Of a stretch of 60,892 bases of DNA, positions 4,614 to 39,761 are shown one piece after another. Under the pieces are notes generated by a model that worked only from the letters and a program-made list of their open reading frames with translations, had not been told where the DNA came from and made no database searches. The stretch lies in the IMG/VR virus record IMGVR_UViG_3300045988_133230. One strand, given 5' to 3'. The DNA is from a virus. Lineage: Duplodnaviria; Heunggongvirae; Uroviricota; Caudoviricetes. Position 1 is the stretch's first letter, and the number at the start of each line of letters is the position of its first letter. Both the position numbers and the translations under genes were made by a program.

Positions 4614-5108
4614 ATGGCTGGAACGGCGGGGCGTTCCGGGCGTCGCCCCAAGCCAACGGCGCGCAAGGCGCTGGCCGGAAACCCCGGCAAGCGAGCCCTG
4701 AATAAAGATGAACCTGTTTTTACGCCCATCAAAGGTGTTGAGCCACCGGAGTGGTTCGCTGAAGAAGATCTCCCTCTCGCCACGATCATGTGGCAACTGA
4801 CAACCAAAGAACTCTGCGGTCAGGGCCTGCTGTGCGTGACTGACCTCGCGGTGCTTGAGCGGTGGTGCGTGGCCTACGAGTTCTGGCGACGTGCCGTGAA
4901 AAATATTGCCATACAGGGCAACACCATCACCGGTGCAATGGGCGGCAGGGTCAAAAATCCGGAGCTGACCGCCAAAAAAGAACAGGAGTCCGAGATGAGC
5001 AGCACGGGGGCAATGCTCGGACTCGACCCCAGCAGCCGCCAGCGTCTGATTGGCCTGGCGGGGCAGAAGAAAGCCACTAACCCGTTTCTGAAAATCATCG
5101 AGTCATGA
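4614..5108 (+). CDS. terminase small subunit (P27-family like)
   Basis: Basic N-terminus [14 protein letters not shown]; AGGAG RBS 9 nt upstream of ATG 4614; overlaps large subunit start. Confidence 0.7.
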
Positions 5109-6838
5109 GCCGGAAATCTTACCCCAACGTAAATGCTGCCAATCAGTATGCCCGTGATGTTGTGCGCGGAAAGATTGTGGCCTGCCAGTTTGTGATTCAG
5201 GCCTGCCAGCGCCATCTTGATGACCTGATGGCGGAAAAAAGTAAGTCGTTTCGTTACCGCTTCGACAAGGACCTGGCTGAACGGGCCGCCAAATTTATTC
5301 AGCTGTTGCCGCACACCAAGGGTGAGTGGGCATTCAAGAGGATGCCCATCACGCTGGAGCCGTGGCAGCTATTTGTGGTCTGCTGTGCGTTTGGCTGGGT
5401 CAATAAAGGGTCCCGGCTGCGCCGCTTCCGGGAGGTGTATACCGAAATCCCCCGTAAGAACGGCAAATCGGCAATCTCTGCCGGTGTTGCCCTGTATTGT
5501 TTTGCCTGTGATAACGAGTTTGGCGCGGAAGTGTATTCCGGTGCCACGACAGAGAAACAGGCGTGGGAAGTCTTTCGCCCGGCGCGACTGATGTGTAAAC
5601 GCACACCCATGCTGACGGAAGCGTTCGGGATTGAGGTTAACGCCTCAAACATGAATCGTCCGGAGGATGGCGCGCGGTTTGAACCGCTGATCGGTAACCC
5701 CGGTGATGGTTCATCACCCCACTGTGCGGTGGTGGATGAATATCACGAGCACGCCACCGATGCGCTTTACACCACGATGCTTACCGGGATGGGGGCGCGA
5801 CGTCAGCCACTGATGTGGGCCATTACTACTGCCGGGTACAACATTGAGGGGCCGTGCTACGACAAGCGACGGGAAGTTATCGAGATGCTCAACGGGTCGG
5901 TACCCAACGATGAACTGTTCGGGATCATCTATACCGTTGACGAAGGCGATGACTGGACCGACCCGCAGGTGCTGGAAAAAGCTAACCCGAATATTGGCGT
6001 GTCGGTTTATCGCGAATTTTTGTTAAGTCAGCAGCAGCGTGCGAAAAATAACGCCCGTCTGGCAAACGTCTTTAAAACAAAACACCTCAATATCTGGGTG
6101 TCGGCGCGTTCGGCGTATTTCAACCTGGTGAGCTGGCAGAGCTGCGAGGATAAATCACTGACTCTTGAGCAGTTCGAGGGGCAGCCGTGCATTCTGGCCT
6201 TTGACCTGGCGCGTAAGCTGGATATGAACAGCATGGCGCGACTTTATACCCGCGAGATTGACGGTAAAACGCATTACTACAGTGTGGCCCCGCGTTTCTG
6301 GGTACCGTATGACACGGTGTACAGCGTCGAGAAAAATGAAGATCGCCGGACAGCCGAACGCTTTCAGAAATGGGTGGAAATGGGCGTTCTGACCGTTACC
6401 GATGGTGCGGAGGTGGATTATCGCTACATCCTCGAGGAGGCCAAAGCGGCGAACAAAATCAGTCCGGTCAGTGAGTCACCCATCGACCCCTTCGGGGCGA
6501 CCGGGTTGTCACATGACCTTGCTGATGAAGACCTGAACCCCATCACTATCATTCAGAACTACACCAACATGTCCGACCCGATGAAAGAGCTGGAAGCGGC
6601 AATTGAATCGGGGCGCTTTCATCATGATGGCAATCCCATCATGACCTGGTGTATTGGCAACGTGGTCGGCAAAACCATTCCGGGTAACGATGATGTGGTG
6701 AAGCCCGTCAAAGAGCAGGCGGAAAACAAAATCGATGGTGCAGTTGCGCTGATTATGGCGGTTGGCAGAGCCATGCTGTACGAGAAAGAAGACACGCTGT
6801 CTGACCACATTGAGTCCTATGGGATCCGCTCGCTTTAA
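5105..6838 (+). CDS. terminase large subunit
   Basis: 577 aa; ATPase and nuclease regions typical of HK97-type large terminases; position between small subunit and portal. Confidence 0.85.
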
Positions 6839-6849
6839 CTGAGGTAATT

Positions 6850-7032
6850 ATGATCATGCTGATTCTCGCGCCTCTGGTGGGCGTGCTGGGGGCGCTTTTG
6901 CTGGCGTATGGTGCCTGGCTGATTTATCCCCCGGCGGGGTTTGTTGTTGCCGGGGCGTTGTGCCTGTTCTGGTCGTGGCTGGTGGCGCGATATCTCGACC
7001 GTACACAGCCGTCTGTCGGCGGAGGTAAATAG
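6850..7032 (+). CDS. small hydrophobic protein
   Basis: 60-aa ORF with two hydrophobic segments between terminase and portal. Confidence 0.35.
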
Positions 7033-8273
7033 TGTTCTTTTCGGGATTATTTCAACGAAAAAGTGACGCACCGGTGACCACGCCAGCAGAGCTGGCGGAT
7101 GCCATCGGGTTGTCCTACGACACCTATACCGGAAAGCAGATCAGCAGTCAGCGGGCCATGCGACTGACGGCGGTTTTTTCCTGCATCAGAGTGCTGGCAG
7201 AGTCGGTCGGGATGTTGCCCTGCAATCTGTATCACCTGAATGGCAGCCTGAAGCAGAGAGCCACCGGCGAACGTCTGCATAAGCTGATCTCCACGCATCC
7301 CAATGGCTATATGACGCCGCAGGAGTTCTGGGAGCTGGTGGTCACCTGTCTGTGCCTGAGGGGAAACTTTTACGCCTACAAAGTGAAAGCATTTGGCGAA
7401 GTGGCTGAACTGCTGCCCGTCGATCCTGGCTGTGTGGTACCGAAGCTTAACAGTAGCTGGGAGCCGGTCTATCAGGTCACATTCCCGGACGGCTCCACGG
7501 ATGTGCTGAGCCAGGAGGATATCTGGCATGTGCGCACGCTGACGCTGGACGGACTGGTGGGGCTGAATCCCATCGCCTATGCCCGCGAGGCAATATCGCT
7601 GGCGGCAGCGACTGAAGAGCACGGGGCCAGACTGTTCAGCAATGGTGCGGTGACGTCGGGTGTGTTGCGTACAGAGCAGACGCTGTCAGATCAGGCTTAT
7701 GAGCGCCTGAAGAAAGATTTTGAGGAGCGTCACACCGGGCTTGGCAATGCTCACCGCCCGATGATCCTTGAGATGGGGCTGGACTGGAAGTCGATGGCGC
7801 TGAACGCCGAGGACAGCCAGTTCCTGGAAACCCGCAAGTTTCAGCTTGAAGAAATCTGTCGTCTGTTCCGGGTACCGTTGCACATGGTGCAGAACACCGA
7901 TCGCGCCACCTTCAACAATATCGAAGAACTGGGGCTCGGATTTATCAACTATTCACTGGTGCCGTATCTGACCCGCATCGAACAGCGGATCAACACCGGA
8001 CTGGTACGAAAAAGTAAGCAGGGCGTTTATTACGCCAAATTTAACGCCGGGGCGTTACTGCGCGGGGATATGAAGTCCCGTTTTGAAGCCTACGCCACCG
8101 GGATCAACTGGGGAATTTACTCTCCCAATGACTGCCGCGACCTGGAAGATATGAATCCGCGTCCCGGTGGTGATGTCTATCTCACACCGATGAACATGAC
8201 CACGAAACCCTCCGATGGCAGTAAAGCCGGTAAGCAGAAGGATAACGCCAATGCAGACGAAACAACGTCTTGA
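7032..8273 (+). CDS. portal protein (HK97 family)
   Basis: 413 aa; gene order terminase-portal-protease-capsid; GTG start after GGAGG. Confidence 0.8.
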   Translation: MFFSGLFQRKSDAPVTTPAELADAIGLSYDTYTGKQISSQRAMRLTAVFSCIRVLAESVGMLPCNLYHLNGSLKQRATGERLHKLISTHPNGYMTPQEFWELVVTCLCLRGNFYAYKVKAFGEVAELLPVDPGCVVPKLNSSWEPVYQVTFPDGSTDVLSQEDIWHVRTLTLDGLVGLNPIAYAREAISLAAATEEHGARLFSNGAVTSGVLRTEQTLSDQAYERLKKDFEERHTGLGNAHRPMILEMGLDWKSMALNAEDSQFLETRKFQLEEICRLFRVPLHMVQNTDRATFNNIEELGLGFINYSLVPYLTRIEQRINTGLVRKSKQGVYYAKFNAGALLRGDMKSRFEAYATGINWGIYSPNDCRDLEDMNPRPGGDVYLTPMNMTTKPSDGSKAGKQKDNANADETTS

Positions 8274-12148: not shown

Positions 12149-12319
12149 ATGTTTGTCAAACCTGTTAAAGGGCGGTCAGTTCCTGACCCTGCCCGCGGCG
12201 ACCTTTTGCCCGCCGAAGGGCGAAATGTTGACGAGAACAACTACTGGCTGCGCCGTGAAGCAGCGGGTGATATCCGGCGCGTGAATAAAAAGGTGAATAC
12301 CGATGACGATAAGCTTTAA
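12149..12319 (+). CDS. small conserved protein preceding tail sheath
   Basis: 56-aa ORF (MFVKPVKGRSVPDP...) found by me, not in ORF track; GAGGA RBS; overlaps sheath start. Confidence 0.45.
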   Translation: MFVKPVKGRSVPDPARGDLLPAEGRNVDENNYWLRREAAGDIRRVNKKVNTDDDKL

Positions 12320-13799
12320 CACCATTCCGTCGAATACGCTGGTTCCGTTGTTTTATGCGGAAATGGATAACCAGGCGGCGAATACTGCACAGGACAGCGG
12401 GGCATCGTTGCTGATTGGTCACGCCAATAACGGTGCAGAGATTGTTGCCAACAGTCTGGTGTTGATGCCGTCGGCAGACTATGCACGCCAGATTTGTGGT
12501 GCGGGAAGTCAGCTGGCGCGTATGGTCGAGGCTTATCGCCAGACCGACCCGTTTGGCGAGCTGTATGTGATTGCCGTTCCGGAAGCCACAGGCGCGGCGG
12601 CAACGGTTACGCTGACGGTGACCGGAGCAGCAACCGAAACCGGCACGGTGAATGTTTATGTGGGACGTACCCGCGTGCAGGCACCGGTGACTAACGGCGA
12701 TAACGTCACGACGATTGCCAGCAGTATCCAGGATGCCATTAATGCCGTTCCGGCCCTGCCGTTTACGGCCTCATCTTCGGCAGGCGTGGTCACACTGACC
12801 GCGCGTCATAAGGGGCTTTGCGGGAATGAAATTCCTGTCAGCCTCAATTACTACGGCTTCGGTGGGGGCGAAGTGCTGCCAGCGGGCGTACAGATTGCCG
12901 TGGCGACGGGGACCGCCGGAACGGGCGCTCCGGTTCTCACCGGTGCGGTGGCTGCAATGGCGGATGAGCCGTTTGATTATATCGGTCTGCCGTTCAACGA
13001 CACGGCCTCCGTTAACACGCTGGTGACCGAGATGAACGATACCAGCGGTCGCTGGAGCTATGCGCGTCAGCTGTATGGTCATGTGTATACGGCAAAGATC
13101 GGCACGCTGTCAGAACTGGTGACCGCAGGTGACCAGTTTAACCAGCAGCACATCACCCTGGCGGGGTACGAAAAAGAGACCCAGACGCCTGCCGACGAGC
13201 TGGCGGCAAGCCGTACCGCCCGCGCAGCGGTGTTTATCCGCAACGATCCGGCACGTCCCACGCAGACCGGTGAGCTGGTGGGTATGTTGCCTGCGCCGAA
13301 GGGGAAACGGTTCACGATGACCGAACAACAGACCCTGCTGTCTCATGGCGTGGCAACGGCGTATGTCGAAAGCGGGGTACTGCGCATTCAGCGTGATGTC
13401 ACCACGTACAGGAAAAACGCTTACGGGGTTGCGGATAACAGCTACCTCGACAGCGAGACGCTGCATACCAGCGCGTATGTACTGCGCAAACTGAAATCCG
13501 TCATTACCAGTAAGTACGGGCGTCACAAGCTTGCCAGTGACGGTACCCGCTTTGGTCCCGGTCAGGCGATTGTCACCCCGGCGGTGATCAAAGGGGAACT
13601 GCTGGCAACCTACCGTCAGCTCGAGCGTGCGGGGATCGTGGAAAACTACGAACTGTTTAAGCAGTACCTGGTTGTGGAGCGTGATGCCAGCGATCCGAAC
13701 CGCCTGAACACGCTGTTCCCGCCTGACTATGTTAACCAGTTGCGTGTCTTTGCCGTGGTTAACCAGTTCCGTCTTCAGTATTCAGAGGAGTCTGCATAA
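12303..13799 (+). CDS. contractile tail sheath protein (Mu-type)
   Basis: 498 aa, followed by tube, chaperone with frameshift, tape measure: Mu-like tail order. Confidence 0.8.
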   Translation: MTISFNTIPSNTLVPLFYAEMDNQAANTAQDSGASLLIGHANNGAEIVANSLVLMPSADYARQICGAGSQLARMVEAYRQTDPFGELYVIAVPEATGAAATVTLTVTGAATETGTVNVYVGRTRVQAPVTNGDNVTTIASSIQDAINAVPALPFTASSSAGVVTLTARHKGLCGNEIPVSLNYYGFGGGEVLPAGVQIAVATGTAGTGAPVLTGAVAAMADEPFDYIGLPFNDTASVNTLVTEMNDTSGRWSYARQLYGHVYTAKIGTLSELVTAGDQFNQQHITLAGYEKETQTPADELAASRTARAAVFIRNDPARPTQTGELVGMLPAPKGKRFTMTEQQTLLSHGVATAYVESGVLRIQRDVTTYRKNAYGVADNSYLDSETLHTSAYVLRKLKSVITSKYGRHKLASDGTRFGPGQAIVTPAVIKGELLATYRQLERAGIVENYELFKQYLVVERDASDPNRLNTLFPPDYVNQLRVFAVVNQFRLQYSEESA

Positions 13800-14424: not shown

Positions 14425-14573
14425 CGGCTGAATACCTCACTGATCGCTTCTTTGACTGCGCCAGCTACTGGCGCATTAATCCCTTCGAATTGCTGAATAT
14501 GCCGATCAGTGAAATTCCCTTACTGGTCAGTCAGGCAAACAGGATAGAGCAGGAGAAACGCACACATGGCTGA
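14391..14573 (+). CDS. tail assembly chaperone -1 frameshift extension
   Basis: ORF in the -1 frame relative to 14155-14424, reachable by slip at T_TTT_TTC 14406-14412. Confidence 0.5.
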   Translation: MACGWFFPPGLTAEYLTDRFFDCASYWRINPFELLNMPISEIPLLVSQANRIEQEKRTHG

Positions 14574-16401
14574 ATTTGAGCTTAAGGCGTTGATCACCGG
14601 TGTCGACAGGCTTTCTCCCGCGCTGTCGAAAATGCAAAAGAAAATCCGGGGATTTAAACGCCAGGCGGAAGAAGCGTCACAGGGTGGGCTGGCGCTTGGT
14701 GGCGGACTGGCTGCGGGTCTGACGCTTTCCCTGAAATCTTATGCCGATCAGGAAAACGCCGCCACCGGGCTGAAAGTTGCCATGATGGATGCGAACGGTG
14801 AGGTCGGAAAGCGCTTTCAGGACATCAATAAACTGGCTATTGGCCTGGGTAACCAGCTACCCGGTACAACGGCTGATTTCCAGAACATGATGCAGATGCT
14901 GGTGCGTCAGGGGATCCCGGCAGAAAACATTCTGGGTGGTGTGGGTAAAGCGACAGCCTATCTTGCGGTACAACTGAAAAAAACACCGGAAGCGGCTGCT
15001 GAGTTTGCTGCAAAGATGCAGGATGCTACCGGAACGGCGTCAGAAGACATGATGGGGCTGTTCGACACTATCCAGAAGGCGTTTTATCTGGGCGTTGACG
15101 ATACCAACATGTTGTCCTTCTTCACTAAAACCAGTTCTGTTCTGAAGATGGTGAACAAGGATGGTCTTCAGGCTGCACAGAGCCTTGCCCCCATCAGCGT
15201 CATGATGGATCAGATGGGGATGAACGGGGAGTCGGCAGGTAATGCCCTGCGAAAAGTTATCCAGTCCGGATTAAGCGTTAAGAAAATCAGGGACGTTAAT
15301 AAAGTTATGGCCCGCCAGAAACTCGGAGTGCAGCTCGATTTTACTGACGGCAAAGGGAGTTTTGGCGGTCTTGATAACATGTTCAGGCAACTGGCAAAGC
15401 TGCGAAAACTGACCGACGTTAAGCGAACAGGTGTACTTAAGGCAATATTTGGTGATGATGCCGAAACCCTTCAGGTGGTCAATGCTCTGATCGATAAAGG
15501 GAAGGATGGTTACGATCAGATCCAGCAGAAGATGAATAAACAGGCCAGCCTGAATAAACGTGTTCAGGCACAGCTTGGTACGCTGTCCAACCTGTGGGAG
15601 GCAATGACGGGGACCGCAACTAACGGTCTTGCAGCTATTGGCGGCGCATTTTCTGGTGACGCTAAAAATATCACGCAATGGCTGGGGGAGTTGGGGGAGA
15701 AATTCACGAAGTTTGCGGATGAAAATCCCCGGGTTATTCGCGGCGTCGTCGGGCTTGCTGCCGGTCTTGCGATTCTGAAACTGGGATTGATGGGCGTTGG
15801 CGGTGCCATCAGTATTGTCAGCAGGATCATGTCGATGACGCCGATTGGCATGATTGCGACGGCGATAGCCCTGGCTGCGGGATTAATTATCACTAACTGG
15901 GATGTTGTCGGACCTTATTTTAAGAAACTCTGGGAAACCATTGGTCCTTATTTTGAGGCCGGCTGGGAACTCCTTAAGAAAGTTTTTGCCTGGTCGCCGC
16001 TGGGGATGGTGATCAATAACTGGGGGCCGGTTGTTAAGTGGTTTCAGGATATGTGGGACAAGCTGAAGCCAATTATTGAGTGGTTTACCGACAGTTCCGG
16101 TGACACGGTCGATGCCATTAACTCTGCGCAGTGGGGCGCGGGTGCTTATGATGCTTATGGGACGGGAATACCGGCGCGGGGATACACACCTTATCCGGCG
16201 GTGGATCCGGCTCAGTCAAACAACGCCTCCGATGCCACAGGCCCGAATCCCTTCATGATTAACAAAGCTTCTGCGCCAAAAGTTGATGGTGAGATCAAGG
16301 TCTCTTTTGTGAATTCGCCTCCGGGTATGCGGGTTATGGAAACGCGATCCAGCGGTTTTGATGTCAGCCATGATGTTGGCTATACGCGCTTTGGCAGGTA
16401 A
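14566..16401 (+). CDS. tail tape measure protein
   Basis: 611 aa, Ala/Gly-rich helical protein with central hydrophobic segment. Confidence 0.85.
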   Translation: MAEFELKALITGVDRLSPALSKMQKKIRGFKRQAEEASQGGLALGGGLAAGLTLSLKSYADQENAATGLKVAMMDANGEVGKRFQDINKLAIGLGNQLPGTTADFQNMMQMLVRQGIPAENILGGVGKATAYLAVQLKKTPEAAAEFAAKMQDATGTASEDMMGLFDTIQKAFYLGVDDTNMLSFFTKTSSVLKMVNKDGLQAAQSLAPISVMMDQMGMNGESAGNALRKVIQSGLSVKKIRDVNKVMARQKLGVQLDFTDGKGSFGGLDNMFRQLAKLRKLTDVKRTGVLKAIFGDDAETLQVVNALIDKGKDGYDQIQQKMNKQASLNKRVQAQLGTLSNLWEAMTGTATNGLAAIGGAFSGDAKNITQWLGELGEKFTKFADENPRVIRGVVGLAAGLAILKLGLMGVGGAISIVSRIMSMTPIGMIATAIALAAGLIITNWDVVGPYFKKLWETIGPYFEAGWELLKKVFAWSPLGMVINNWGPVVKWFQDMWDKLKPIIEWFTDSSGDTVDAINSAQWGAGAYDAYGTGIPARGYTPYPAVDPAQSNNASDATGPNPFMINKASAPKVDGEIKVSFVNSPPGMRVMETRSSGFDVSHDVGYTRFGR

Positions 16402-19414: not shown

Positions 19415-19839
19415 TGGAACTGTGGCTGACGGTGAACGGTAAACGCACCTGCGCCAGCGCACCGCTGGATCCGCTGACCCGCGCCGTGGTGATTTCCCTG
19501 TTCACCTGGCGGCGGGCGGAGCCTGATGACAATGCCGACGTCCCGATGGGATGGTGGGGGGATACCTGGCCTGCGGTACAGAATGACCGTTACGGCTCCC
19601 GGCTGTGGCTGCTTCAGCGCGGCAAACTGACCAATCAGCTGGTGCAGACGGTAAGGGGGTATATCCGCGAATGCCTGCAATGGATGATTGATGACGGTGT
19701 GGTGTCCCGTATTGATCTGGATATCCGCCGCACCGGGATTAATGAACTGGGTAACAGTATCACTCTCTGGCGTCGTGACGGACCGGTAATGATTTCTTTT
19801 GATGATCTGTGGAGTGCGATAACGCATGGCGGACAGTGA
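19411..19839 (+). CDS. baseplate protein (gp46 / W-like)
   Basis: 142 aa between V and J homologs. Confidence 0.6.
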   Translation: MMELWLTVNGKRTCASAPLDPLTRAVVISLFTWRRAEPDDNADVPMGWWGDTWPAVQNDRYGSRLWLLQRGKLTNQLVQTVRGYIRECLQWMIDDGVVSRIDLDIRRTGINELGNSITLWRRDGPVMISFDDLWSAITHGGQ

Positions 19840-20884
19840 ATTTCAGCGCCCGACGCTGGCAGAAAATATCAGTATGCTCCGTAACGATTTATTCGCCAGG
19901 CTGGACGTCAGCGACACGCTCCGGCGCATGGATGAAGACGTGCGGGCAAAGGTGTATGCGGCGGCGCTGCATACGGTTTACGGTTACATCGATTATCTGG
20001 CAATGAACATGCTGCCTGACCTGTGCGATGAGTCCTGGCTGGCGCGACATGCTGCGATGAAACGGTGTCCGCGCAAGGGGGCCACGGCTGCCAGCGGGTA
20101 TATGCGCTGGGAAGGTGTCAGCGATGGCCTGAAGGTGACCGCCGGGAGTGTTATTCAGCGCGATGACCTGGTTCAGTACACGGCAACTGCCGATGCAACC
20201 AGCGCCGGTGGTGTCCTGCGCGTGCCGATCGCCTGCTCAAGTGCAGGAGCGGTCGGTAACGCTGACGACGGTACGTCATTAATCCTGGTCACGCCGGTGA
20301 ATGGTCTGCCGTCTTCCGGCGTGGCAGACACTCTGACAGGTGGATTTGATACTGAAGAGCTGGAAACGTGGCGCGCCCGCGTCATTGAGCGGTATTACGG
20401 GACGCCTCAGGGCGGGGCTGACGGGGACTATGTAGTCTGGGCTAAAGAAGTGCCCGGCATTACCCGTGCATGGACATACCGCCACTGGATGGGAACGGGG
20501 ACTGTCGGTGTGATGATTGCCAGCAGTGACCTGATTAATCCCATTCCGGAAGAATCAACGGAAACGGCGGCAAGACAACACATTGAGCCACTGGCCCCGG
20601 TGGCAGGCTCTGATTTGTATGTATTCAGGCCGGTGGCGCATAAAGTGGATTTTCATATCCGCGTGACGCCGGACACACCGGAAATACGGGCTGCCATCAC
20701 CGCCGAGTTGCGTTCGTTCCTGCTGCGTGATGGTTATCCGCAGGGAGAACTGAAGGTGTCGCGTATCAGTGAGGCGATTTCCGGTGCGAACGGGGAATAC
20801 AGCCATCAGTTGCTTGCACCGGCGGACAATATCTCCATTGCAAAAAATGAACTGGCGGTACTGGGGACGATTTCATGGACGTGA
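19826..20884 (+). CDS. baseplate J-like protein
   Basis: 352 aa; corresponds to the e14 jayE region. Confidence 0.75.
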
Positions 20885-27764: not shown

Positions 27765-28907
27765 CTATGCTGTTTTGATATCTACGATAATCCAGTCTTT
27801 ACCACGATCATCATTGTATCGGTCGGTCATTTTTCTGGATTTATGGCCTAACAACTTTTGCGTATCCAGACCCTGTTCCCGATATAACCGTTCTGACAGA
27901 GATCGCTGCTCATGAAATGTGGGCGCAGTTCCTTGCTCCCATTTTATGCCACATTTTTCCCTGGCCTTTTTAAAAGCCGTTGTCAGAGTATTCGCAGAAA
28001 CCTGGTCTCCTCTGTTTGCTTGAGAGGTTGTGTGACGGTAATGGACCAGATATTTACTAACAACAGCATCCCTGCACTGAGATATAACTTCACGAAGGGT
28101 AATATTCAGAGCATCGCATTTCAGGTTAAGCGGAATAGCAAGTTTTGAACCGGTTTTTTCCTGAGTAATGTGCAACATGTCGTCCCAGATATCAGAGAAT
28201 TTCAAATTGCAGATATCGCCTAAACGTTGTCCAGTGACAAGAGCAAGTAGCATCCCACATTTTAAATAGGGCTGCCGTCTGCTTACGCTGTCAAATATTG
28301 CCTGCCATTCGGGCAGTGATAATCTTTGGCGGTTTACTCGATTTCGCGGTTGTTTTGTTGCCTGCGCTGGGTTAAATCCTGGCGGAACATGTCCTGCGTG
28401 TTGTGCTTCTTTGAAGACGTCGATTAACACCATTCTCACGACTTGCGCCATCCTGTTATGACCTTCAGCCTTTACAGCATCAATTATTTCGGCAATATCA
28501 AGTGCGGTAATATCCTTGAGGTGTTGCATTCCACAATGCTCACGGAAAAGACGAATGGGTTTGCCTTTTTGCCGATAGGAGTTGGGTCTTAGTTCATTAT
28601 GTTGCAGCCTGTCCTCCTGGATAGAAATATATTTATCAAGCCATTCTGTCACCGTAATGTCTGAGCGCCTGCCTTTCATTCTTTCCAGACGCTCATTGAC
28701 GCTTAATATTTGTCGGGTACGTTGTTCAGCAATAATGATATTTGCTTCAGTAGCAACTTGTTTTGCTTCATTCTCATCAGTTCCTAAGCTATGAAAACGA
28801 CCGGATAGTGGATGTTTGTATTGCCAATATACCTTTCCGGTTCGCTTATCTAATTTGCAATATAAATTGGGTATAGAGATTTTGTGAGATCGGGGTCTAG
28901 CAGCCAT
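27765..28907 (-). CDS. int: tyrosine integrase (e14 IntE-like, icd-targeting)
   Basis: 380 aa with C-terminal R...HxxR...Y catalytic region (LLGHKSRKMTDRY); adjacent to icd fragment. Confidence 0.9.
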   Translation of the reverse strand: MAARPRSHKISIPNLYCKLDKRTGKVYWQYKHPLSGRFHSLGTDENEAKQVATEANIIIAEQRTRQILSVNERLERMKGRRSDITVTEWLDKYISIQEDRLQHNELRPNSYRQKGKPIRLFREHCGMQHLKDITALDIAEIIDAVKAEGHNRMAQVVRMVLIDVFKEAQHAGHVPPGFNPAQATKQPRNRVNRQRLSLPEWQAIFDSVSRRQPYLKCGMLLALVTGQRLGDICNLKFSDIWDDMLHITQEKTGSKLAIPLNLKCDALNITLREVISQCRDAVVSKYLVHYRHTTSQANRGDQVSANTLTTAFKKAREKCGIKWEQGTAPTFHEQRSLSERLYREQGLDTQKLLGHKSRKMTDRYNDDRGKDWIIVDIKTA

Positions 28908-34768: not shown

Positions 34769-34996
34769 ATGACAAATCAAACCATTCAACTCGCAATCAG
34801 TATTACAGGTAGTCAAAAACGACTGGCAGATCTATGCGGTGTAGCCCAGCCCACTGTTTGGCGTTGGCTACACGGTGGCGGAATTGATGCCCGCTATGTA
34901 ATGAAAATTGTCTCAGCCACTGGTGGAAAGATTAAACCAGCAGATATTCGTCCCGACCTCGCACCATTGTTTAACGCGAGTAATTCTGCCGCCTAA
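34769..34996 (+). CDS. cro: Cro-type HTH regulator
   Basis: 75 aa, HTH, divergent from cI. Confidence 0.75.
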   Translation: MTNQTIQLAISITGSQKRLADLCGVAQPTVWRWLHGGGIDARYVMKIVSATGGKIKPADIRPDLAPLFNASNSAA

Positions 34997-35020
34997 TCTG
35001 CGGCGTTAACTGATAAGGCA

Positions 35021-35566
35021 ATGACTATGCAACCACTTACATACCAACAGACTAGCGGATTTAGCCCGACTGCGGTGATAAATCGTTCTCAAACAAAACA
35101 GGCGCCAGGCCACGAAAAAATCCGTGATGCCGTTCGCGCCTGGTCGGCTGCAGATAATCAGGATGTTGTTGCCGCACTCATTGTGAATGAGTATCGGGAG
35201 CAGGGCGGCGGCACCATCGATTTCCCTGATGATGTCAGCCGTGCACGCCAGAAGCTGTTCCGCTTCCTCGATAACAAATTCGATTCTGAAAAATACCGAA
35301 ATAACGTGCGTGAACTGACCCCGGCAATTCTGGCGGTACTACCGCTGGAATATCGCGGCCACCTGGTTGAGCAGGATAGCTTCATGGCTCGGCTGGCTGA
35401 AATGGAAAAGGAACTCAGTGAGGCAAAACAGGCTGTCATTCTCAACGCACCACGCCACCAGAAACTGAAGGAGATGAGTGAAGGCATTGTGTCGATGTTT
35501 CGTGTGGACCCGGATCTGGCTGGTCCACTGATGGCGATGGTCACCACCATGCTGGGGGCAATATGA
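35021..35566 (+). CDS. regulatory protein in cII position (181 aa)
   Basis: Gene order cro - this ORF - O; longer than lambda cII. Confidence 0.5.
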   Translation: MTMQPLTYQQTSGFSPTAVINRSQTKQAPGHEKIRDAVRAWSAADNQDVVAALIVNEYREQGGGTIDFPDDVSRARQKLFRFLDNKFDSEKYRNNVRELTPAILAVLPLEYRGHLVEQDSFMARLAEMEKELSEAKQAVILNAPRHQKLKEMSEGIVSMFRVDPDLAGPLMAMVTTMLGAI

Positions 35567-35652
35567 CAGGTTCGGAAATGGCGAAAGCCGGTCTGCGCGA
35601 ACAGAACCGACTTTCAGGTGCAAATCGTAACACACTCATTGCGGGAGGAATT

Positions 35653-36582
35653 ATGGCAAACACTGCTGAGATATTCAATTTTCCAGTGCCGGATGTGGCA
35701 CAAAAGGAGCCGCGCGTGGCAGATCTCGATGATGGTTATACGCGCATTGCAAATGAGTTGCTGGAAGCTGTGATGCTGGCCGGATTAACACAGCACCAGC
35801 TTCTGGTCTTCCTGGCTGTCATGCGCAAAACATATGGCTTTAATAAAAAACTGGATTGGGTGAGCAACGAGCAACTTTCCGAGTTGACCGGGATATTGCC
35901 GCACAAGTGTTCTGCTGCAAAAAGTGTTCTGATAAAGCGTGGGATTTTTATTCAGAGCGGGCGGAATATCGGCATTAATAATGTGGTCAGTGAATGGTCA
36001 ACATTACCCGAATCAGGTAAGAAAAATAAAGTTTACCTGAAAGAGGTAAATTTACCTGAATCAGGTAAGAAAAGTTTACCCAAATCAGGTAAAGACGTTT
36101 ACCCGAATCAGGTAAACACAAAAGACAAACTAACAAAAGACAATATAAAACCTTTTTCGTCCGAGAATTCTGGCGAATCCTCTGACCAGCCAGAAAACGA
36201 TCTTCCTGTGGTGAAACCGGATGCTGCAATTCAGAGCGGCAGCAAGTGGGGGACAGCAGAAGACCTGACCGCCGCAGAGTGGATGTTTGACATGGTGAAG
36301 ACCATCGCGCCATCAGCCAGAAAACCGAATTTTGCAGGGTGGGCTAACGATATCCGCCTGATGCGTGAACGTGACGGACGTAACCACCGCGACATGTGTG
36401 TACTGTTCCGCTGGGCATGCCAGGACAACTTCTGGTCCGGTAACGTGCTAAGTCCGGCCAAACTCCGCGACAAGTGGACCCAACTCGAAATCAACCGTAA
36501 CAAGCAACAGGCTGGCGTGACAGCCGGAAAATCAAAACTCGACCTGACAAACACTGACTGGATTTATGGGGTGGATTTATGA
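35653..36582 (+). CDS. O: replication initiator O
   Basis: MANTAEIFNF...ADLDDGY resembles lambda O N-terminus; contains iterons; upstream in-frame ATG at 35563 possible. Confidence 0.8.
   Translation: MANTAEIFNFPVPDVAQKEPRVADLDDGYTRIANELLEAVMLAGLTQHQLLVFLAVMRKTYGFNKKLDWVSNEQLSELTGILPHKCSAAKSVLIKRGIFIQSGRNIGINNVVSEWSTLPESGKKNKVYLKEVNLPESGKKSLPKSGKDVYPNQVNTKDKLTKDNIKPFSSENSGESSDQPENDLPVVKPDAAIQSGSKWGTAEDLTAAEWMFDMVKTIAPSARKPNFAGWANDIRLMRERDGRNHRDMCVLFRWACQDNFWSGNVLSPAKLRDKWTQLEINRNKQQAGVTAGKSKLDLTNTDWIYGVDL
36004..36115. repeat. origin iterons (four TTACCCGAATCAGGTAA-type 17-mers plus one degenerate) within O
   Basis: Copies at 36004, 36052, 36076, 36099 (degenerate 36032), followed by an A-rich tract. 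Confidence 0.8.
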
Positions 36583-37280
36583 AAAACATCGCCGCACAGA
36601 TGGTTAACTTTGACCGTGAGCAGATGTGCCGGATCGCCAATAACATGCCGGAACAGTACGACGAAAAGCCGCAGGTACAGCAGGTAGCGCAGATCATCAA
36701 CGGTGTGTTCAGCCAGTTACTGGCAACTTTCCCGGCGAGTCTGGCTAACCGGGACCAGAACGAACTGAACGAAATCCGCCGCCAGTGGGTTCTGGCTTTC
36801 CGGGAAAACGGGATCACCACAATGGAACAGGTTAACGCAGGAATGCGCGTAGCCCGTCGGCAGAATCGACCATTCCTGCCATCACCCGGGCAGTTTGTTG
36901 CCTGGTGTCGGGAAGAAGCATCCGTTACCGCCGGGCTGCCAAACGCCAGCGAGCTGGTTGATATGGTTTACGAGTATTGCCGGAAGCGTGGCCTTTATCC
37001 GGATGCAGAGTCTTATCCATGGAAATCAAACGCGCATTACTGGTTGGTTACCAACCTGTATCAGAACATGCGAGCCAATGCGCTGACTGACGCGGAATTA
37101 CGGCGCAAGGCTGCCGATGAACTGACCTGTATGACAGCGCGAATTAACCGTGGTGAGGCTATACCTGAACCAGTAAAACAAATTCCTGTCATGGGCGGTA
37201 GACCTCTAAATCGTGCACAGGCTCTGGCGAAGATCGCAGAAATCAAAGCTAAGTTTGGGCTGAAAGGAGCAAGAGTATGA
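36579..37280 (+). CDS. P: replication protein P (DnaB loader)
   Basis: 233 aa, near-identical to lambda P as recalled. Confidence 0.9.
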   Translation: MKNIAAQMVNFDREQMCRIANNMPEQYDEKPQVQQVAQIINGVFSQLLATFPASLANRDQNELNEIRRQWVLAFRENGITTMEQVNAGMRVARRQNRPFLPSPGQFVAWCREEASVTAGLPNASELVDMVYEYCRKRGLYPDAESYPWKSNAHYWLVTNLYQNMRANALTDAELRRKAADELTCMTARINRGEAIPEPVKQIPVMGGRPLNRAQALAKIAEIKAKFGLKGARV

Positions 37281-37579: not shown

Positions 37580-37646
37580 TGAAACAGGTGAGTTGAGTTC
37601 AAACTGTAGTACAATTCTCTCCAGTTTGAACAGGAAAGAATATGCT

Positions 37647-37979
37647 ATGAACCCTTATATTTATCTTGGTGGTGCAATACTTGCAGAGGTCATTGGTACA
37701 ACCTTAATGAAGTTTTCAGAAGGTTTTACACGGTTATGGCCATCTGTTGGTACAATTATTTGTTATTGTGCATCATTCTGGTTATTAGCTCAGACGCTGG
37801 CTTATATACCTACAGGGATTGCTTATGCTATCTGGTCAGGAGTCGGTATTGTCCTGATTAGCATACTATCATGGGGATTTTTCGGCCAACGGTTGGACCT
37901 GCCAGCCATTATAGGCATGATGTTGATTTGTGCCGGTGTGTTGGTTATTAATTTATTGTCACGAAGCACACCACATTAA
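37647..37979 (+). CDS. emrE: small multidrug resistance efflux protein EmrE
   Basis: 110 aa MNPYIYLGGAILAEVIGTTLMKFSEGF... matches EmrE (a DLP12 prophage gene in K-12); start at internal ATG 37647. Confidence 0.9.
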   Translation: MNPYIYLGGAILAEVIGTTLMKFSEGFTRLWPSVGTIICYCASFWLLAQTLAYIPTGIAYAIWSGVGIVLISILSWGFFGQRLDLPAIIGMMLICAGVLVINLLSRSTPH

Positions 37980-38234
37980 AAATAATTTATTTTTAAACGA
38001 CTAAAATATGGAGGTTCGTATATTTGTATGGGCCTCGTTTTATGCTTTTTGTTAATGTCTTTAGTTTTTATTCATTCTTTTGAACTTTCAAGATTATGGT
38101 GTAAGAAAATTGCAATACGATTATTGTTGTATATTCAAGATAATGTGACCTTAATTGTCTTTTTAAATAAAAATTAAACAAAAATCATATCTCACCACTA
38201 AGGTTTATAAAAGCATACTTTAGCAGGTGTCACC

Positions 38235-39761
38235 ATGAAAAAAGCCATAGCATATATGCGATTTTCATCACCAGGTCAGATGTCTGGTGATTCATTAAAC
38301 CGCCAGAGAAGGCTTATTACTGAATGGCTAAAGGTAAATAGTGATTATTACCTTGATACCGTAACGTATGAAGATTTGGGGTTAAGCGCATTCAATGGAA
38401 AGCATGCACAATCAGGAGCTTTTTCGGAATTTTTAGATGCTATAGAACATGGTTACATATTGCCAGGGACTACATTGTTAGTTGAAAGTCTGGACAGACT
38501 TTCAAGAGAAAAAGTCGGTGAAGCGATTGAGCGTCTGAAATTGATTTTGAATCACGGTATTGATGTTATAACTCTTTGCGATAATACAGTCTATAATATA
38601 GACTCATTGAATGAGCCATATTCATTAATAAAAGCCATACTTATAGCACAAAGGGCAAATGAAGAAAGCGAGATAAAGTCAAGTCGGGTTAAATTATCAT
38701 GGAAGAAAAAACGGCAGGATGCACTGGAATCAGGCACGATTATGACGGCGTCTTGTCCGAGATGGCTCTCATTGGATGACAAAAGAACAGCTTTTATTCC
38801 AGACCCCGACAGGGTGAAAACGATTGAGCTAATTTTTAAACTCAGGATGGAAAGGCGATCATTGAATGCAATAGCTAAGTATTTAAATGATCATGCTGTA
38901 AAAAATTTTTCAGGAAAAGAAAGTGCATGGGGGCCTTCTGTAATTGAAAAATTATTAGCGAATAAAGCTCTGATAGGTATATGCGTACCTTCATATCGTG
39001 CAAGAGGGAAAGGGATAAGTGAAATCGCTGGCTATTATCCCAGAGTCATATCAGATGATTTGTTTTACGCTGTACAGGAAATTCGGTTGGCACCTTTTGG
39101 TATTAGCAATAGTAGCAAGAATCCTATGCTAATAAATCTACTTCGAACAGTTATGAAGTGTGAGGCTTGTGGTAATACCATGATTGTTCATGCGGTATCT
39201 GGACGTTTGCATGGCTATTATGTTTGTCCGATGAGAAGATTACATCGATGTGACAGGCCATCAATAAAAAGAGATTTGGTTGATTATAATATCATTAATG
39301 AATTGCTTTTTAATTGTAGCAAAATTCAACCAGTTGAAAACAAGAAAGATGCTAATGAAACTTTAGAGTTAAAAATTATTGAGCTTCAGATGAAAATTAA
39401 TAATTTAATCGTTGCATTGTCTGTCGCGCCTGAAGTTACCGCTATAGCAGAGAAAATAAGACTATTAGATAAGGAATTACGAAGGGCTTCGGTATCATTA
39501 AAAACTTTGAAGAGTAAAGGGGTGAGTTCACTTGGTGATTTTCATGCTATTGATTTAACTAGTAAAAATGGGCGAGAGCTATGTCGTACACTTGCCTATA
39601 AAATATTCGAAAAAATTATAATTAATACAGATAATAAAACCTGTGATATCTATTTTATGAATGGCATTGTTTTTAAACACTATCCTTTAATGAAAGTAAT
39701 ATCCGCCCAGCAGGCGATAAGCACTCTTAAATATATGGTTGATGGTGAGATTTATTTTTGA
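38235..39761 (+). CDS. ybcK: large serine recombinase (YbcK-like)
   Basis: Resolvase N-terminal catalytic region (YMRFSSPGQ...SLDRLSR), Cys-rich zinc ribbon; AT-rich. Confidence 0.75.
   Translation: MKKAIAYMRFSSPGQMSGDSLNRQRRLITEWLKVNSDYYLDTVTYEDLGLSAFNGKHAQSGAFSEFLDAIEHGYILPGTTLLVESLDRLSREKVGEAIERLKLILNHGIDVITLCDNTVYNIDSLNEPYSLIKAILIAQRANEESEIKSSRVKLSWKKKRQDALESGTIMTASCPRWLSLDDKRTAFIPDPDRVKTIELIFKLRMERRSLNAIAKYLNDHAVKNFSGKESAWGPSVIEKLLANKALIGICVPSYRARGKGISEIAGYYPRVISDDLFYAVQEIRLAPFGISNSSKNPMLINLLRTVMKCEACGNTMIVHAVSGRLHGYYVCPMRRLHRCDRPSIKRDLVDYNIINELLFNCSKIQPVENKKDANETLELKIIELQMKINNLIVALSVAPEVTAIAEKIRLLDKELRRASVSLKTLKSKGVSSLGDFHAIDLTSKNGRELCRTLAYKIFEKIIINTDNKTCDIYFMNGIVFKHYPLMKVISAQQAISTLKYMVDGEIYF

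Follow-up and report, generated by a model that had tools for sequence, protein, structure and literature searches.

The window analysed here, a 60,892-nt stretch of tailed-phage (Caudoviricetes) DNA, contains on its plus strand a replication initiator gene O (35653–36582; 309 amino acids), a homologue of lambda O (Pfam Phage_rep_O, 6.6e-34), followed directly by gene P for the helicase loader (36579–37280; Phage_lambda_P, 9e-62). Both are intact ORFs. Relatives are annotated with a longer O of 339 amino acids that begins at ATG 35563 and overlaps the upstream stop codon. The ATG at 35653 has a Shine–Dalgarno sequence (GGAGGA) 5 nt upstream and aligns with Met1 of lambda O; because of these two features, and of a pO-like promoter at this point, 35653 is likely to be the true start of O, and the first 30 residues of the 339-residue annotation are probably not translated. 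The promoter (TTGAAT-17-CATAAT with TG; 35650–35678, minus strand) was found by a promoter scan and overlaps the start codon. In the same scan the ATG of lambda O was overlapped in identical register by TTGAGT-17-CATAAT, at the position of pO. A stable hairpin (35585–35617, minus strand; z = −2.8) lies ∼30–60 nt downstream of the promoter; it has no T-run and the terminator scan reported none, so that an oop-like terminator was rejected. Promoter and hairpin could specify an antisense RNA that resembles oop and is directed at the 3′ end of the YdaT-like gene described below. A gathering-threshold Rfam scan of the whole window matched no RNA family, at this candidate (35585–35678) or elsewhere.

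These genes belong to a lambdoid prophage that begins at about 27488 and runs from its integrase gene (27765–28907, minus strand) to beyond the end of the window; it matches a prophage adjoining icd in E. coli CU42ET-1. Upstream of O are a minus-strand gene for an S24/HTH CI-type repressor and, in the cro and cII positions (34769–35566), genes for a YdaS-like Cro (PF15943) and a YdaT-like protein (PF06254). Pfam calls YdaS and YdaT 'toxins', and in phage records these genes appear as hypothetical or as CII. Downstream of P a renD-like gene is followed directly by emrE (SMR efflux) and a gene for a ybcK-like large serine recombinase (both within 37593–39761), cargo in the nin-region position, as in DLP12 and Perceval. 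The layout is that of the Bievrevirus/DLP12-like phages. A second, unrelated prophage of myovirus type (1–27400) precedes the lambdoid one in tandem, with genes for the large terminase (5105–6838), portal (7032–8273), tail sheath (12303–13799), tape measure (14566–16401) and baseplate J (19826–20884).

Within O, the repeat finder recovered a 17-mer family in five direct copies on the plus strand: iteron 1′ at 36004–36020 (TTACCCGAATCAGGTAA), iteron 1 at 36033–36049 (TTACCTGAAAGAGGTAA), iteron 2 at 36052–36068 (TTACCTGAATCAGGTAA, a near-perfect palindrome), iteron 3 at 36076–36092 (TTACCCAAATCAGGTAA) and iteron 4 at 36099–36115 (TTACCCGAATCAGGTAA). They occupy codons 118–155 of the 309-residue protein, between the N- and C-domains. 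Each copy is internally dyad-symmetric, with TTACC and GGTAA as arms, and many inverted pairs were listed among the copies by the repeat finder because each copy is itself a palindrome. The core is AATCA in four of the five; iteron 1 has a variant core (AAAGA) between two perfect arms, and AAAAA or AAAGA is also found at this position in relatives from several genera. When the whole window was scanned with the degenerate pattern TTACCYRAAWSAGGTAA, allowing one mismatch, the plus-strand matches were the five iterons only; the sole additional match was iteron 2 read on the reverse strand, that copy being nearly palindromic. No match of any kind occurred in 100 dinucleotide-preserving shuffles, and the array is therefore far beyond chance expectation (five copies against none). 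TRF reported the same array at 36004–36115/6 with periods of 23 and 47.

The sequence-only reading of this DNA had described four 17-bp direct repeats and one degenerate copy inside the coding sequence of the replication initiator, and had proposed self-comparison as a check. The location was confirmed, since the ORF concerned (35563/35653–36582) is the Phage_rep_O match, and the repeats were reproduced by the repeat finder, the pattern scan and TRF as one five-copy family at 36004–36115. Two details needed refinement. The start-to-start distances are 29, 19, 24 and 23 bp, so that the spacing of about 24 bp given in that reading holds for the mean (23.75) but not for single gaps. A degenerate copy does exist (36033), but the copy that is extra in comparison with lambda is the perfect one at 36004.

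Iteron 4 abuts a strand-asymmetric A-rich tract of 43 nt (36116–36158, plus strand), which is presumed from its composition and its homology to the AT-rich segment of the lambda ori to be the DNA-unwinding element; the A-rich tract noticed earlier after the repeats was thus located directly 3′ of the last copy. It comprises 24 A, 8 T, 9 C and 2 G (74% A+T; GC 0.25; AT skew up to 0.69) and contains two 15-bp ACAAAAGACAA repeats detected by the repeat finder. A ACACAAAAGA tract comes after the last iteron in every iteron type examined, P22 included. Next to it, an imperfect palindrome around GAATTC (36159–36186) aligns with the right-hand palindrome of the lambda ori. The homologous sequence is present, but its predicted DNA fold has z = −1.9 in the window compared with −3.1 in lambda, and the value of −1.9 is by itself not significant for a hairpin. 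No DnaA box was found near the ori: the nearest match to TTWTNCACA is >6 kb away, and the count of such matches across the window is below chance.

The lambda RefSeq record annotates four iterons inside O (39034–39118). In a pairwise DNA alignment the window copies at 36033, 36052, 36076 and 36099 fell over lambda iterons 1–4, iteron 1 of the window being the positional equivalent of lambda iteron 1, whereas the copy at 36004 lies within a 30-bp insertion relative to lambda that corresponds to a 10-residue gap in the O protein alignment. The two origins share (i) a central location in O, between its two domains, (ii) the order of elements and the dyad symmetry of the iterons, (iii) the last three spacings (19/24/23 in the window and 20/24/23 in lambda), (iv) a homologous A-rich tract, with ACACAAAAGAC...ACAAAAGA in both and (v) a pO-like promoter over the start of O. 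From 36160 onward the DNA sequences are almost identical, and the C-terminal ∼140 residues of O and the whole of P are ∼99% and 97% identical to their lambda counterparts. There are also differences. The window iteron is TTACCCGAATCAGGTAA and the lambda consensus is ATCCCTCAAAACGAGGGA, so that the window iterons fall outside the lambda specificity class; there are five iterons rather than four; and the palindrome on the right is weaker. Identity to lambda O is 67% over the whole protein, but only 47% over the first 117 residues and 36% over residues 71–117. On these alignments, a non-lambda N-domain/iteron module meets a lambda O-C/P module at the A-rich tract.

Of the features that characterize an origin of the lambda type, four were found here: at least three to four dyad-symmetric iterons of roughly 18 bp, about two helical turns apart; their position inside the coding sequence of a Phage_rep_O-family initiator; an AT-rich, strand-asymmetric tract to the right of the last iteron; and, directly downstream, a P gene matched to the O C-domain. 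The locus is very probably a lambda-style origin from which a lambdoid prophage replicates, and it lies within the gene for its own initiator. The sequence-only reading had called it a lambda-type ori and had suggested comparison with lambda as a check. Aligned column by column, the region and the lambda ori are colinear, with iterons, A-rich tract and palindrome region in the lambda order and O followed by P; the likeness extends to the anatomy but not to the sequence of the iterons, which implies an ori specificity different from that of lambda.

Of the classical phages compared, the one with the most similar N-domain is P22 (61% identity over the first ∼115 residues). The ori in P22 gene 18 shares with the window the half-site arms TTTACC and GGTAAA and the GAATC centre, and consists of four iterons at spacings of 20/24/23 followed by ACACAAAAGACAATA. 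Its iterons are, however, shorter by 2 bp, the arms being 5 nt apart instead of 7, and its putative recognition motif is TKCSTAKN compared with HKCSAAKS in the window; with each half 1 bp longer and a different motif, the window iterons stand outside the P22 specificity class (17-nt TTTACC-GAATC-GGTAAA). The C-domain of gp18 is unrelated, and its partner is the DnaB-type helicase gp12 and not a loader of the lambda P type. For the number of iterons, Stx phages such as 933W and P27 offer a parallel, since they too have extra iterons away from the AT-rich tract and an O lengthened accordingly; they differ in having lambda-type iteron sequences and two extra iterons instead of one. Six lambda-type iterons have been described in Stx phages, of which the four proximal ones are bound strongly while the additional two are needed for plasmid replication (PMC7466680).

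Relatives were collected by scanning species-representative genomes for the O N-domain. This led to 29 loci, of which 12 carry the iteron type of the window (type A): two each from Enterobacter, Xenorhabdus and Pantoea and one each from Pseudocitrobacter, Kluyvera, Klebsiella, Providencia, Arsenophonus and Sodalis. A first question is whether the repeats are kept for the sake of the protein, as a flexible LPESGKK-like linker between the O N- and C-domains with no role in cis. The repeat region does lie between these domains, and the sequence-only reading had pointed to LPESGKK-like peptide repeats. This is correct for three of the five copies, whose first base is at codon phase 1 and whose translations are LPESGKK (twice) and LPKSGKD. 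In the remaining pair, which begins at phase 3, the peptides are VYLKEVN and VYPNQVN; since two phases occur among the copies, the same DNA word is kept in two frames. In the 12 type-A relatives, moreover, the TTACC/GGTAA arms are 94–100% identical to the consensus and whole iterons 89–99%, whereas across the 117 codons of the adjacent N-domain the third positions are only 24–56% identical to the window. Because the arms are kept to this degree while third-codon positions are not, the comparison provides strong evidence that the iterons have been selected as DNA and not as peptide. Internal palindromes would also be meaningless for a peptide, and different O clades have wholly different repeats at the same place and with the same spacing. 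We therefore regard the linker explanation as extremely unlikely.

The number of iterons varies among the relatives. There are four in Xenorhabdus, Pantoea and Providencia; five in the window and in Pseudocitrobacter, as in Klebsiella if a weak first copy is counted (four by a stricter criterion); eight in Arsenophonus (locus L016); and ten in Sodalis (L018). Iteron 1′ is missing from the four-copy relatives (L008–L012). In Kluyvera sichuanensis (L006, 1854–2062) nine iterons are arranged with three tandem 48-bp (29+19) units, and the unit stays in frame because 48 bp correspond to 16 codons. The last three spacings (19–24–23) are constant among type-A relatives, and both lambda and P22 have 20–24–23.

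At the level of E. coli, the ori segment 35960–36200 was found at ≥80% coverage in about 2369 of 5426 complete genomes (∼44%). Among the sampled rows covering the whole 241-bp query, all had the length of the query except one plasmid copy, which is without 23 bp (one iteron) and belongs to an O gene annotated as a frameshifted pseudogene. This 23-bp-deleted O is part of an IS-flanked O-P remnant (L034, 2212–3099) on the 195-kb E. coli plasmid p23AR0151A. The deletion illustrates the constraint that the reading frame places on changes in copy number.

The phages Perceval, 4A7, Lambda_4C10, 1W and 3W (Bievrevirus/DLP12-like) share with the window its O allele (99.1% identity) and its five iterons, with YdaS/YdaT-like genes in the cro/cII positions and P, renD, emrE and ybcK downstream; in the ori there is essentially no difference from the window. 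The record of Perceval, the only one of a close relative whose features were listed, annotates the gene but neither the iterons nor an ori. DLP12 in K-12 is defective, and the origin of the window could likewise be a fossil, its iterons and O being relics of a defective prophage that no longer fires. Consistent with this are the DLP12-like cargo (emrE and ybcK), the weakened right-hand palindrome and the fact that the prophage extends past the end of the window. Against it, O and P are intact, and the region is essentially identical to that of isolated viable phages (the five named above and PhiR47_2), of which Perceval is an active prophage isolated as plaques (PMC9928086). The strong conservation in about 2369 E. 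coli genomes, with no change of length in the sampled full-length rows bar the plasmid pseudogene, also speaks against decay. A fossil origin therefore appears very unlikely, and we infer origin function here from homology, together with the fact that near-identical phages are viable.

Other O clades have different repeats in the same place. Besides the lambda type (ATCCCTCAAAACGAGGGA), these are the P22 type (P22, L014 and L017; TTTACC-GAATC-GGTAAA, with arms and centre as in the window and each half 1 bp shorter), type B (L020–L026, with L019 probably belonging; ATTAGCCAAnnCAGCTAAT) and an Aeromonas type (AACCCnAAAACAGGGTT). Residues 25–70 of O are conserved across all iteron types. For residues 71–117, in contrast, identity to the window is 0.57–0.81 in type-A loci and ≤0.53 in every other locus. 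Identity over the whole N-domain was discarded as a predictor of iteron type, as L013 and L015 (70–74%) differ in type while L018 (59%) keeps type A. Within the 71–117 segment, (P/S)HKCSAAKS occurs in 12 of 12 type-A proteins and differs in every other type, the corresponding motifs being TKCSTAKN (P22), HHTHVC(K/T)AKN (type B), VKRCNEAKL (lambda) and ENKARDVVR (Aeromonas). In the window the motif is PHKCSAAKS (O residues 83–91; codons at 35899–35925, plus strand), which varies along with iteron type and may belong to the recognition helix, and residues 83–95 read PHKCSAAKSVLIK.

We infer from the co-variation that O residues ∼83–95 form the recognition helix of an HTH. A PDB sequence search with O returned no homologue at E ≤ 1, and a single-sequence AlphaFold2 model of the N-domain had a pLDDT of 42, too low for use. 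There is one exception to the co-variation: L013 and L015 have a P22-like 71–117 segment but the iteron TTTCnnCCGTnnGGGAA, in four copies with the usual 20/24/23 spacing. In these two loci (L013, 1501–2622, Enterobacter sichuanensis; L015, Klebsiella grimontii) a T5orf172 domain is located between the Phage_rep_O domain and the iterons. The partner in L013, which is not type A, is a DnaC/IstB-like loader.

The co-variation also bears on whether the repeats are bound not by O but by another protein (a host factor or a phage repressor, for instance) and regulate expression of O rather than initiation. Palindromic 17-mers do resemble operators in general. However, the position, number and spacing of these are those of the O-binding iterons of lambda, the type of repeat and a segment of O itself vary together and no other copy was present in the 60.9-kb window, immunity region included. 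The probability of this alternative is, in our estimate, close to negligible.

The two modules are not always found together. Among type-A relatives, a lambda-type O C-domain with P was seen only in the two Pantoea loci, and Arsenophonus has a P homologue; the remaining ones combine the same N-domain and iterons with other C-domains. The A-rich tract sits at the junction between the N-domain/iteron and O-C/P modules.

In lambda, O dimers bind the iterons and form an O-some, which opens the AT-rich tract and recruits P-DnaB. This mode of initiation has been summarized (PMC7466680, PMC8022706). Since the mechanism is taken over by homology with lambda, binding, unwinding and origin firing are predictions for the locus described here. 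A dimer of O would bind each dyad-symmetric iteron, with its TTACC/GGTAA arms, via the N-terminal domain, and the likely reading element is the helix around residues 83–95 that carries PHKCSAAKS. The four iterons beside the A-rich tract (36033–36115), ∼two helical turns apart, would assemble the O-some, which would destabilize the adjoining tract (36116–36158). The lambda-type C-domain of O would then recruit P bound to host DnaB, so that the helicase is loaded. The upstream iteron at 36004, the fifth, may serve as an accessory site, as the extra iterons in Stx phages suggest.

At the least, then, we consider this a real and unexceptional ori of the lambdoid kind, with P22-like arms and a specificity other than that of lambda. 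We also put forward a more specific proposal, though only tentatively, as it seems to us slightly more apt to fail than to hold: that TTACCCGAATCAGGTAA and PHKCSAAKS together mark a distinct and undescribed class of O-family ori, related to that of P22 by a symmetric 1-bp expansion of the half-sites, in which arrays range from 4 to 10 copies by way of in-frame 48-bp (29+19) duplications (Kluyvera, Arsenophonus and Sodalis) and the copy at 36004 functions as an accessory iteron. Phage 82 combines an ori of non-lambda type with a P that is compatible with lambda. The exact iteron string was found in no paper of the searchable literature, a scope outside which the 1979–1981 papers on the phi80/82 origins fall, and a literature search on phage 82, its O gene and origin gave no matches. 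It is possible that the iteron type of the window was described earlier in those papers.

The array marks the ori of a very common type of E. coli prophage, and taken singly it has little meaning beyond annotation. Its interest lies in the comparison with relatives. Iteron types at the fixed spacing of 20/24/23 form a natural series that co-varies with one short segment of O, and this co-variation proposes a recognition helix for an initiator that has no solved structure. If the distinct specificity class is real, the co-variation would show precisely which residues read the iterons in an initiator without a PDB homologue detectable by sequence. Among the relatives, iteron numbers of 4, 5, 8, 9 and 10 likewise form a natural series, within limits set by the reading frame of the gene in which the origin lies.
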